Sequence record: PQ658967.1
Reading direction: 5' to 3' (one strand)
Source of the DNA: Escherichia phage vB_EcoS-UDS3lw
DNA: 44,071 nucleotides
How positions within the stretch are numbered: position 1 is the stretch's first letter; each line of letters opens with the position of its first letter. The translations under genes were made by a program, and so were the position numbers. Of this stretch, positions 36,970 to 37,752 are shown piece by piece. Below the pieces are notes generated by a model. The model was not told where the DNA came from. It did not search any database and saw nothing but the letters and a program-made list of their open reading frames with translations.

Positions 36970-37752
36970 TTAACGGCGGCGACGTTTACGTGGTGCTTCG
37001 TCTTCGTCGTCGTCCTCATCTTCGTCATCGCGTGGCTTACGACGTTTGCGAGGTTTCGCATCTTCCTCATCGTCGTCGTCATCGCGGCGCTTGGATTTCT
37101 TGGACTTGCGCGGCTTGTCATCTTCATCATCGTCATCACGACGTTTTGACTTCTTAGCCTTGCGCGGTGCTTCGTCTTCGTCGTCGTTGTCCAGGTCTTC
37201 ATCGGAGCAAGAAGACCCGCCACCGCCGAAGGCTTCGCCGTCTTCACGGAATCGCAGACCCAGCAAGCCAGCCCCTAGACCCTTGCCGTTGGTATTGTTC
37301 CATGCCCAAATATCAAGGGACACGTTGCAATAACAACCGGAGTAGATCTCCTGGCCTTCAATCTCGTCGCCGTCGATGGTCAGACCCTGTTCAGTCTGCT
37401 TCTCGCCTAGTGACGTTTGAATGATTGGCTGTTTGAACGATTTGGCGTTGATGTACAACATGCCTTCGAATTCTTCGGTCACTTCGTCGCGCTCGTCACC
37501 GTCGCGGACTGCACATTCCTTAGAATCCTGGGCGTAATGGCGGTCCATCCACTTATCGGCATTCTTCTCGGATTTCAGCTTATCGGTGAGCACTGCGCGC
37601 GCTGCCGCTTCCACTTTGTCCACCTGCGGATCTTCTTTATCCAGAAGAATAACGGCACGGTATGCAGGTTTTTGACCATCCTGTTTAGGGGTATCACGTT
37701 CCCAAATTTTAAGGAAGCATACGCGCACATTTTTCAGGTTGACTTTAGCCAT
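36970..37752 (-). CDS. OB-fold ssDNA-binding-like protein with C-terminal acidic/basic tandem repeats
   Basis: N-terminal AKVNLKNVRVCFLKIWE and GCYCNVSLDIWAWNN segments; C-terminus has about three repeats of RRDDDDEDDKPRKSKKSK; GAGGA SD before ATG at 37752. Confidence 0.5.
   Translation of the reverse strand: MAKVNLKNVRVCFLKIWERDTPKQDGQKPAYRAVILLDKEDPQVDKVEAAARAVLTDKLKSEKNADKWMDRHYAQDSKECAVRDGDERDEVTEEFEGMLYINAKSFKQPIIQTSLGEKQTEQGLTIDGDEIEGQEIYSGCYCNVSLDIWAWNNTNGKGLGAGLLGLRFREDGEAFGGGGSSCSDEDLDNDDEDEAPRKAKKSKRRDDDDEDDKPRKSKKSKRRDDDDDEEDAKPRKRRKPRDDEDEDDDEDEAPRKRRRR

Follow-up and report, generated by a model that had tools for sequence, protein, structure and literature searches.

Mixed-charge repeat tails in phage single-stranded DNA-binding proteins, viewed from the gp2.5-type protein of a Dhillonvirus-like phage

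[quoted passage not shown] Part of this system is known: the protein is an ordinary SSB of the Enc34/T7 gp2.5 family and the orthologue of a studied defence trigger. What is new is the class of tail, in which acidic and basic blocks alternate. Taken together, the data identify the mixed-charge repeat tail as a conserved, recurrent and apparently undescribed class that is also found in at least two other phage SSB families. Its presence in the near relatives, in about 12% of the family and in other SSB families makes it a recurrent class and not a single-gene oddity. No description of mixed-charge repeat tails in phage SSBs was found in the literature, in a search that left most subscription journals uncovered.

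The gene and its parts are arranged as follows.

36970..37752, minus strand: SSB gene, Enc34/T7 gp2.5-type (open reading frame (ORF), PF10991, PHROG_112)
37228..37752, minus strand: OB-fold (oligonucleotide/oligosaccharide-binding) ssDNA-binding domain, residues 1-175, ending ...DGEAF (AlphaFold2 (AF2), Foldseek, Pfam)
37204..37227, minus strand: Gly/Ser hinge GGGGSSCS, residues 176-183 (model confidence, pLDDT, drops from 98 to ~70; the GGGG is kept among relatives)
37138..37203, minus strand: tail unit 1, residues 184-205, DEDLDNDDEDE-AP-RKAKKSKRR (unit parse; includes the conserved acidic D-x-D-L motif)
37084..37137, minus strand: tail unit 2, residues 206-223, DDDDEDD-KP-RKSKKSKRR (unit parse; within the 54-nt DNA repeat)
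37030..37083, minus strand: tail unit 3, residues 224-241, DDDDDEED-AKP-RKRRKPR (unit parse)
36973..37029, minus strand: tail unit 4, residues 242-260, DDEDEDDDEDE-AP-RKRRRR (unit parse; basic C-terminus)
37062..37187, no strand assigned: DNA tandem repeat under units 1-3 (Tandem Repeats Finder (TRF): period 54 nt, 2.3 copies, 72% matches)

The 260-residue ORF runs on the minus strand from an ATG at 37752 to a TAA stop at 36970-36972, as the earlier note on this DNA had placed it. By sequence and model, its product is an Enc34/T7 gp2.5-type OB-fold SSB, the replicative and recombination SSB of a Dhillonvirus. This identification follows from several lines of evidence: matches to Pfam, PHROG and the PDB; the AF2 model with its Foldseek hits; a conserved Trp; synteny; and orthologues that trigger a retron. 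PF10991 (Enc34_ssDNA-bd, formerly DUF2815) matches at E=1.5e-31, with 109.9 bits against a cutoff of 26, and the alignment spans residues 3-193 and profile positions 2-173 of 176. PHROG_112, 'Gp2.5-like ssDNA binding and annealing protein', matches at E=2.9e-55, and a PDB sequence search returns 4KLK, 4JG2 and Enc34 ORF6 (5ODJ) at E about 1e-11. The Pfam scan gives no match between this SSB and the T4 gp32 family (PF08804). An AF2 model built on a 71-sequence alignment (A1) has pLDDT values of 92-98 over residues 1-170, and the PDB structures that Foldseek ranks highest for it are 4KLK (7.5e-13), 5ODL (Enc34 SSB with ssDNA; 3.7e-12), 4JG2 and 1JE5 (T7 gp2.5; 1e-6). The modelled domain is an OB barrel with the helical insertions typical of the family. 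Enc34 stacks four aromatic residues on ssDNA bases (Trp150, Tyr156, Tyr37 and Tyr30). In a single pairwise HMMER alignment, W149 aligns with Trp150 and F13 with Tyr30; Tyr156 pairs with N155 and Tyr37 with T21, with W151 and W17 close by. The proposal of an N-terminal OB-fold SSB, for which a DUF2815/Enc34 match and an OB-fold prediction had been named among the points to check, is thus supported on these two counts.

Beyond the hinge, the last 77 residues form four units of the pattern acidic run-x-Pro-basic run, ending in RKRRRR. The alternation and the RKRRRR end had been recognized from the sequence, with about three repeats; the parse gives four. Counted from S183, the 78 residues include 35 D/E and 28 K/R, for a charged fraction of 0.81 and a net charge per residue of -0.09. 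The charges are strongly segregated: kappa is 0.61, as compared to 0.12 +/- 0.05 in composition-preserving shuffles, none of which (0/2000) reaches 0.61. Net tail charge is -7, with an acidic start, 28 K/R and the basic RKRRRR end. The AF2 model has pLDDT about 50 and no secondary structure at residues 188-260; it places a four-residue helix at residues 184-187 (DEDL), and a DDDL/DDF-type motif directly follows the OB domain in nearly all relatives. The tail is therefore predicted to be a blocky mixed-charge (polyampholyte) intrinsically disordered region. The acidic-hydrophobic DDDIPF-like tip is absent from this SSB, which ends ...APRKRRRR. At the DNA level, a tandem repeat had been suggested at about 36975-37170. 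A repeat exists over narrower limits, being the 54-nt repeat at 37062-37187 together with a 3/6-nt GA-rich microrepeat at 36996-37030 (TRF), and the two outer tail units are degenerate at the DNA level.

The occurrence of such tails in the PF10991 family was assessed in two ways. A word-indexed search with the whole protein retrieved 120 PF10991 proteins, with tails of none to more than ten units. This sample is biased towards similar tails, and the OB domain alone was therefore searched exhaustively against 1.84 billion cluster representatives, giving 2282 matches at E<=1e-3. Among the best 150 of these 2282, basic blocks are missing from 132 and occur at least once in 18 (two or more in 11); about 12% of family representatives in this set thus have tails with basic blocks and about 88% do not. 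The nearest relatives, from Dhillonvirus, Eiauvirus, Jerseyvirus and Kagunavirus, all carry mixed-charge tails. Several units, with ...SRDDD at the end, are present in Eiauvirus eiAU-183 gp41; a single unit, the equivalent of unit 4, is present in Jerseyvirus Ent1 gp38 and in Kagunavirus K1G ORF35, whose sequences end in PRRERRRNR or PRRERRRR. Distant members, with 27-40% identity in the OB domain, have 4-10 units followed by an acidic-hydrophobic tip such as DDDVA, DDDDVV or DDDDY. RD/RS-type repeats are present in relatives P0112, P0119 and P0181. The description of the tail as atypical therefore holds in one sense: it differs from the tail of every biochemically characterised member, all of these being described as purely acidic. 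It does not hold for the family at large, as near relatives all carry such tails, about 12% of the unbiased family sample has one, and many gp32-like and phrog_15004 SSBs have a comparable tail.

In some distant members, the repeats precede tips like those of host SSBs: ...DDDDDLPF in P0064, ...DDDEIPF in P0086 and ...DDENPF in P0079. Across P0063, P0064, P0079, P0086, P0097 and locus L017 (6001-6879), the repeats end in DDDDDLPF, DDEIPF, DDENPF or DDDLPY. As these tips closely resemble the bacterial DDDIPF, the distant PF10991 SSBs might engage host SSB-interacting proteins, a suggestion drawn from the tip motifs.

Two regularities are evident across 265 family tails. First, the number of acidic residues rises with that of basic residues (acid = 1.10 x basic + 7.6, r=0.96). 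Tails of up to 70 residues average a net charge of about -7 to -8, and the mean shifts to -10 to -13 for the longest tails. The relationship between the two counts indicates that the repeats are near-neutral modules inserted into a canonical acidic tail of about -7. Second, Pro is placed directionally: it lies within three residues after 318 of the 343 acidic runs that precede a basic block. In the opposite arrangement, 310 acidic runs come after a basic block, and Pro lies before only 38 of them, Ser/Thr being frequent there (190/310).

Selection and copy number were analysed in twelve complete Dhillonvirus-like loci from IMG/VR plus phage McMelon. Most have four units; L009, L010 and L016 have three, as does SECphi4 outside this set, and L011 has two. 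Unit 2 is absent from the natural two- and three-unit variants L010, L011 and L016, and unit 3 is absent or partly deleted in the natural variants L009 and L011. All length differences are in frame, with about one unit lost in each, and no frameshifted or truncated tail occurs among the 12 complete loci. These 12 loci and SECphi4/18 all retain an unchanged [A/K]PRKRRRR terminus. Summed over all pairs, pN/pS is 0.117 in the tail and 0.052 in the OB domain, and pS is 0.28 and 0.27, respectively. By these comparisons, the tail peptide is under purifying selection and the DNA is not specially constrained; the latter follows from the equal pS of tail and OB domain.

Blocky mixed-charge tails are not confined to PF10991. 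IMG/VR DNA was scanned for a pattern of six D/E, any residue, Pro and three basic-type codons, which yielded at least 120 stretches; 114 ORFs of 100 aa or more lie in the matches listed (alignment A2). Among these 114, Pfam gp32 accounts for 16, phrog_1192 (SSB) for 20, phrog_15004 (SSB) for 10 and PF10991 for 3. A jackhmmer search with charged regions masked assigns 37 as gp32-like, 5 as phrog_15004-like and 2-3 as gp2.5-like, or 44 of the 114 listed ORFs. After dereplication at about 40% identity, SSBs make up 28 of 90 clusters among the matches listed, and 14 of the 20 listed ORFs with at least three units are SSBs. As background, the same loci contain 2738 other ORFs that are 100 aa or longer, and 1 of these is an SSB. 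In a control scan for the reversed motif (three basic, Pro, x, six acidic), 38 of 97 ORFs were SSBs, so that the SSB share among the matches listed is about 39% in either direction. A single directional linear motif common to all families was dropped, as the reversed motif yields the same 39%. The motif is otherwise carried by head maturation proteases or scaffolds, by ParB-like proteins and by members of unknown families.

Among the gp32-like proteins, the repeats come after the OB/Zn core and are in many cases succeeded by either a short motif at the terminus or a small module with four cysteines (Cys4). This location between the OB core and the C-terminal element is a linker position. For phrog_15004, a PDB sequence search with the N-terminal domain returned nothing, so SSB status and fold follow the PHROG label alone. 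The four-cysteine module that follows the linker in gp32-like SSBs (L034, L035, L056, L069, L088, L090, L100, L110, L115, L116 and L130) has the approximate consensus CP-x-G-x-x-FG-x-D-x(5-7)-C-x(2)-C-x(5)-C, and had no Pfam match in these scans. Several further proteins have multiple units and carry no PHROG or Pfam function: L065, L099, L122, L124 and L135; L039; L097; and L086. The L065/L124/L135 family begins MSLTQRLERALKKNL... These multi-unit families may be further undetected ssDNA-binding or annealing proteins.

The biochemistry of other SSB tails suggests a function. T7 gp2.5 has an acidic tail that competes with ssDNA for the DNA-binding cleft and binds the polymerase and helicase, as cited in one report (PMC5686142); its binding to polymerase and helicase-primase is also summarised in a second (PMC13402713). 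Deletion of the Enc34 acidic tail unmasks double-stranded DNA (dsDNA) binding (PMC5686142). The disordered linker of E. coli SSB is needed for non-nearest-neighbour cooperativity and phase separation (10.1101/2022.01.17.476650, 10.1101/797431), and in PRD1 P12 a disordered C-tail drives the cooperative formation of filaments (PMC11886824). By analogy with these systems, the present tail is, on balance, probably a mixed-charge disordered linker through which DNA binding, cooperativity and the recruitment of partners are adjusted.

The proposed mechanism would proceed in several steps. In the free protein, the acidic blocks would fold back onto the basic blocks and onto the cationic DNA cleft. 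The canonical net charge of about -7 would thereby be retained; in Enc34 and T7, such a charge suppresses binding to dsDNA and fills the ssDNA site. On ssDNA, the polyanion would compete for the basic blocks, which could then add non-specific backbone contacts and charge screening, favouring strand annealing. The basic blocks of one protomer may also pair with the acidic blocks of its neighbours, giving cooperative or condensed SSB-ssDNA assemblies. Finally, the freed acidic blocks and the invariant APRKRRRR end might recruit the polymerase, helicase-primase or nuclease. A broader version of this proposal is tentative, and we regard it as rather doubtful in its entirety: a convergent linker class, in at least three phage SSB families, for electrostatic SSB-ssDNA self-association coupled to DNA-triggered release of acidic blocks that recruit the replisome.

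Several points weigh against assigning these functions to the tail. Each mechanistic step is drawn from composition, conservation and analogy. The natural two-, three- and four-unit variants are viable, so tail length is not critical, which would fit a passive spacer too. The word-indexed family sample favours similar tails, and the 265 tails behind the design rules are related sequences whose counts are not independent. The directional Pro rule is confined to the DUF2815 set, and because the reversed motif is equally enriched in SSBs, the enrichment belongs to blocky mixed charge generally. The escape mutations described below all lie in the OB domain, and the genetics therefore gives no tail phenotype. 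Lastly, the acidic tail of T7 gp2.5 is dispensable for activation of Retron-Eco8 (PMC13402713).

An alternative that we consider unlikely, if worth attention, is that the tail is a multivalent docking array. Each unit or acidic block would bind a replisome partner (the polymerase, the helicase-primase encoded at 41247-43511, the DUF2800 nuclease or the phrog_3127 protein described below); the basic blocks would be mainly spacers; and the poly-Arg end would be a docking peptide replacing the terminal Phe of gp2.5, so that one SSB holds several partners. The partner binding of the T7 gp2.5 tail (PMC5686142, PMC13402713) fits this arrangement, as do the directional, motif-like grammar of the family's units, in which 93% of acidic runs are followed by Pro, and a terminal APRKRRRR that is invariant though internal units vary. 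In addition, repeats can precede a true docking tip in distant relatives (DDDDDLPF, DDDEIPF), and EDEAP-K-KK-type repeats occur in a second protein of the same module. However, an array does not require the balance of acidic and basic residues, and between lineages the unit sequences are poorly conserved except for charge and Pro. Copy number differs among near-identical phages, and the same architecture is present in unrelated SSB families with different replisomes.

Neutral low-complexity expansion is less probable still. Here, replication slippage in the GA-rich 3' end would have been tolerated by a disordered tail of which only the first acidic segment is functional. Such a history could account for the 54-nt tandem repeat and microrepeats in the DNA, for the polymorphism of 2 to 4 units among phages at least 88% identical, and for the lack of basic blocks in about 88% of family representatives (best 150 of 2282). 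It does not readily explain a pN/pS of 0.12 with normal synonymous divergence, the absence of frameshifted or truncated tails in the 12 complete loci, or the tight charge balance (r = 0.96) and conserved Pro placement. The tail type is moreover retained down to about 27-35% OB identity, and gp32-like and phrog_15004 SSBs have it independently, with an enrichment far in excess of the background of 1 in 2738.

Scarcely credible is a third possibility, in which the peptide is a by-product of a cis-acting DNA element (origin iterons, as in the lambda ori within gene O) or of an alternative frame or programmed frameshift: a tandem DNA repeat does lie inside the replication module, the tail region (36915-37247) has a +1 frame without stops over 110 codons, and two database proteins, P0005 and P0008, have the +1 frame as their tail, but tail synonymous sites diverge as fast as those of the OB domain (pS 0.28 vs 0.27), the DNA repeats are only 72% alike, and relatives conserve the charge pattern and not the nucleotide sequence. 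The iteron or origin reading was rejected on the equal synonymous divergence of tail and OB domain. The frameshift reading was rejected on two grounds. No tail codon has T at position 2, so the +1 frame has no stop, and the open frame is a by-product forced by codon composition. Further, the frame changes at separate places in P0005 and P0008 (within the GGGG run in one, after DDDLGD in the other), as expected of independent indels or sequencing errors. The +1 frame (36915-37247, minus strand) would encode a K/R/T/M-rich peptide, which is fused to the OB domain in phage vB_EcoS-22664B1 and in a 50%-identity cluster representative. As P0008 is that cluster representative, it could mislead annotation pipelines.

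Comparison with characterised SSBs places the preferred reading, a mixed-charge disordered linker, in context. Enc34 ORF6 (5ODJ/5ODK/5ODL) and T7 gp2.5 (1JE5) share with this SSB the PF10991 family, the fold and the replication-module context. The disordered C-terminal extension with an acidic start is likewise Enc34/T7-like, and its net charge of about -7 matches that of short-tailed members. The tails of Enc34 ORF6, T7 gp2.5 and two structural-genomics proteins are purely acidic (PMC5686142): those of Enc34 and T7 are short, the former with 16 D/E in the last 29 residues (PMC5686142), and T7 gp2.5 ends ...DEDGDF. In contrast, the tail described here has 77 residues, 28 K/R in four blocks and an RKRRRR end without an acidic/aromatic tip.

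The closest functional parallel may lie outside the family. E. coli SSB and this SSB both have an OB core followed by a long disordered linker that varies in length, and the role of the E. coli linker is the role proposed here. The two OB families are unrelated (Foldseek E > 0.5), and the linkers differ in chemistry: the intrinsically disordered linker of E. coli SSB is Gly/Pro/Gln-rich and nearly uncharged, whereas the present one is 81% charged and blocky. We infer that this tail works most like a bacterial-SSB-type disordered linker of different chemistry. In T4 gp32, a basic N-terminal segment (the LAST motif) provides cooperativity, and an acidic C-terminal domain provides autoinhibition and partner binding. 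In T4 gp32 as in this SSB, a single protein thus bears disordered segments of two kinds, basic (K/R-S/T-rich) and acidic, but the two charges of gp32 are found one at each end, without repetition, and the two proteins have no sequence relationship. PRD1 P12 has a different OB-like fold and serves protein-primed replication, and its tail, as the abstract describes it, is not a mixed-charge repeat (PMC11886824). The tail of this SSB is also like eukaryotic mixed-charge domains in its high charged fraction, near-zero net charge and high kappa. Eukaryotic blocky polyampholytes, such as the arginine-rich mixed-charge domains of nuclear-speckle proteins, resemble it without homology.

SSB tails are control handles of the replication fork, acting on ssDNA/dsDNA selectivity, cooperativity and enzyme recruitment, and mechanistic work on phage SSB tails has all concerned short acidic ones (T7 gp2.5, T4 gp32, Enc34). 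If the mixed-charge repeat is a distinct recurrent solution, it would represent a new mode of regulation for SSB-ssDNA assemblies. Self-association, if it occurs, would imply long-range cooperativity or condensate-like replication and recombination foci. Were the convergent-linker proposal correct, the Dhillonvirus SSB, with its natural two-, three- and four-unit alleles in phages of E. coli K-12, would be a tractable model. The system is testable, since the phages infect E. coli K-12, are held in public collections and supply natural unit-number alleles. A possible use lies in compact self-neutralising linkers for SSBs in recombineering or isothermal amplification. The proposal, if true, would also bear on how defences that sense SSB-ssDNA (Retron-Eco8, ShosTA and others) see Dhillonvirus-type SSBs.

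This last point concerns close orthologues of the protein. The SSBs of the Dhillonvirus phages SECphi4, SECphi6 and SECphi18, which are known to set off Retron-Eco8 and ShosTA, are orthologues that show no essential difference from this one: the OB domain of SECphi18 is 97.8% identical to it, and the SECphi4 and SECphi18 tails are of the same type, with three and four units, respectively. Phages that escape Retron-Eco8 carry SSB mutations, and co-expression of the SECphi4 SSB activates the retron, as does T7 gp2.5 (10.1101/2022.08.27.505566). The SECphi4 orthologue is said to bind Retron-Eco8 msdDNA in a later account, which cites earlier work (PMC13402713). In Table S2 of the former study (10.1101/2022.08.27.505566), the Retron-Eco8 escapers are T56P plus a promoter mutation, and the next block, read as ShosTA, lists N152H, F106V, T21P and F95L. 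The escape residues T56, T21, F95, F106 and N152 are all present in this SSB. Tail mutations were sought in that table and none was found; the SSB residue changes listed are all in the OB domain. The same study displayed SSB residues 1-186 only and hid the 'flexible C-terminal residues', without discussing the tail (10.1101/2022.08.27.505566).

The genes and signals around the SSB gene are listed below.

37761..37765, minus strand: Shine-Dalgarno sequence GAGGA, 8 nt 5' of the ATG at 37752 (read from sequence)
38078..39508, minus strand: DUF2800 PD-(D/E)XK (Cas4-like) exonuclease, upstream neighbour (PF10926 E=5.8e-66, PF12705 E=4.5e-9)
36928..36951, minus strand: intrinsic terminator hairpin AAGCCCGC-UUAAU-GCGGGCUU with U-tract, 19 nt 3' of the SSB stop codon
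36741-36911, minus strand: 56-aa ORF between terminator and polymerase (ORF list)
34453..36744, minus strand: family-A DNA polymerase, downstream neighbour (PF00476; phrog_17 E=2.1e-130)

An alternative GTG start at 37773 would add seven residues; annotated orthologues begin MAKVNL. The 5.2 kb around the gene match 160 phage records, and in 142 cases the match spans 80% or more of the length at 90-96% DNA identity; these records include McMelon, PTXU06, JLBYU60 and BASEL phages such as Oekolampad. The whole window is that of a Dhillonvirus-like E. coli siphophage. Its leftward replication operon has the order DUF2800 exonuclease, 80-aa ORF, SSB, terminator, 56-aa ORF and family-A polymerase. 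A setting with a Cas4-like nuclease and polymerase A had been proposed in the earlier note, and the SSB does sit between the DUF2800 nuclease and the family-A polymerase. This synteny is preserved in the distant tail-bearing relatives L017 and L018, and the DUF2800 nuclease/family-A polymerase neighbourhood is common to Eiauvirus, Jerseyvirus and Kagunavirus. The family-A polymerase beside the Jerseyvirus orthologue (Salmonella phage Ent1, L002 2176-3555) is annotated with an intein; for the Dhillonvirus polymerase of the window, no intein is annotated in its relatives.

The terminator hairpin was confirmed by direct folding, a consensus terminator scan having returned no match at the SSB 3' hairpin. 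The 58-nt stretch folds with a minimum free energy of -24.6 kcal/mol (z = -4.74), and 0/200 shuffles fold equally well. A terminator is annotated at the same site in phage PTXU06 and 3' of the Jerseyvirus orthologue. SECphi4/18 escapers occupy the rows between the 'Borvo' and 'Retron-Eco8' headers in Table S2 of 10.1101/2022.08.27.505566, with mutations in the 56-aa ORF (E21fs) or in its 'intergenic region upstream' (+TT, G->T). By position arithmetic, the intergenic mutations lie ~20 nt past the SSB stop, in or near the terminator. This location suggests that transcription read-through into the polymerase gene may matter for Borvo sensing.

Two acidic-x-Pro-basic repeats, EVVEDDDAEDE-AP-AKTKKAPAKGKAKK and EVVEDDDEDAEDE-KP-AKAKKAPAKGKGKK, also occur in another protein of the replication operon. 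It is encoded at 39997-40506 of the window (minus strand), inside ORF 39997-40686, and its start is probably MFEQIV. It matches phrog_3127 (unknown function), has no Pfam match and returned nothing in a PDB sequence search. The phrog_3127 protein is essentially restricted to Dhillonvirus-like phages (154 records). The match length of its gene varies from 426 to 609 nt among phages, which suggests copy-number variation there too.

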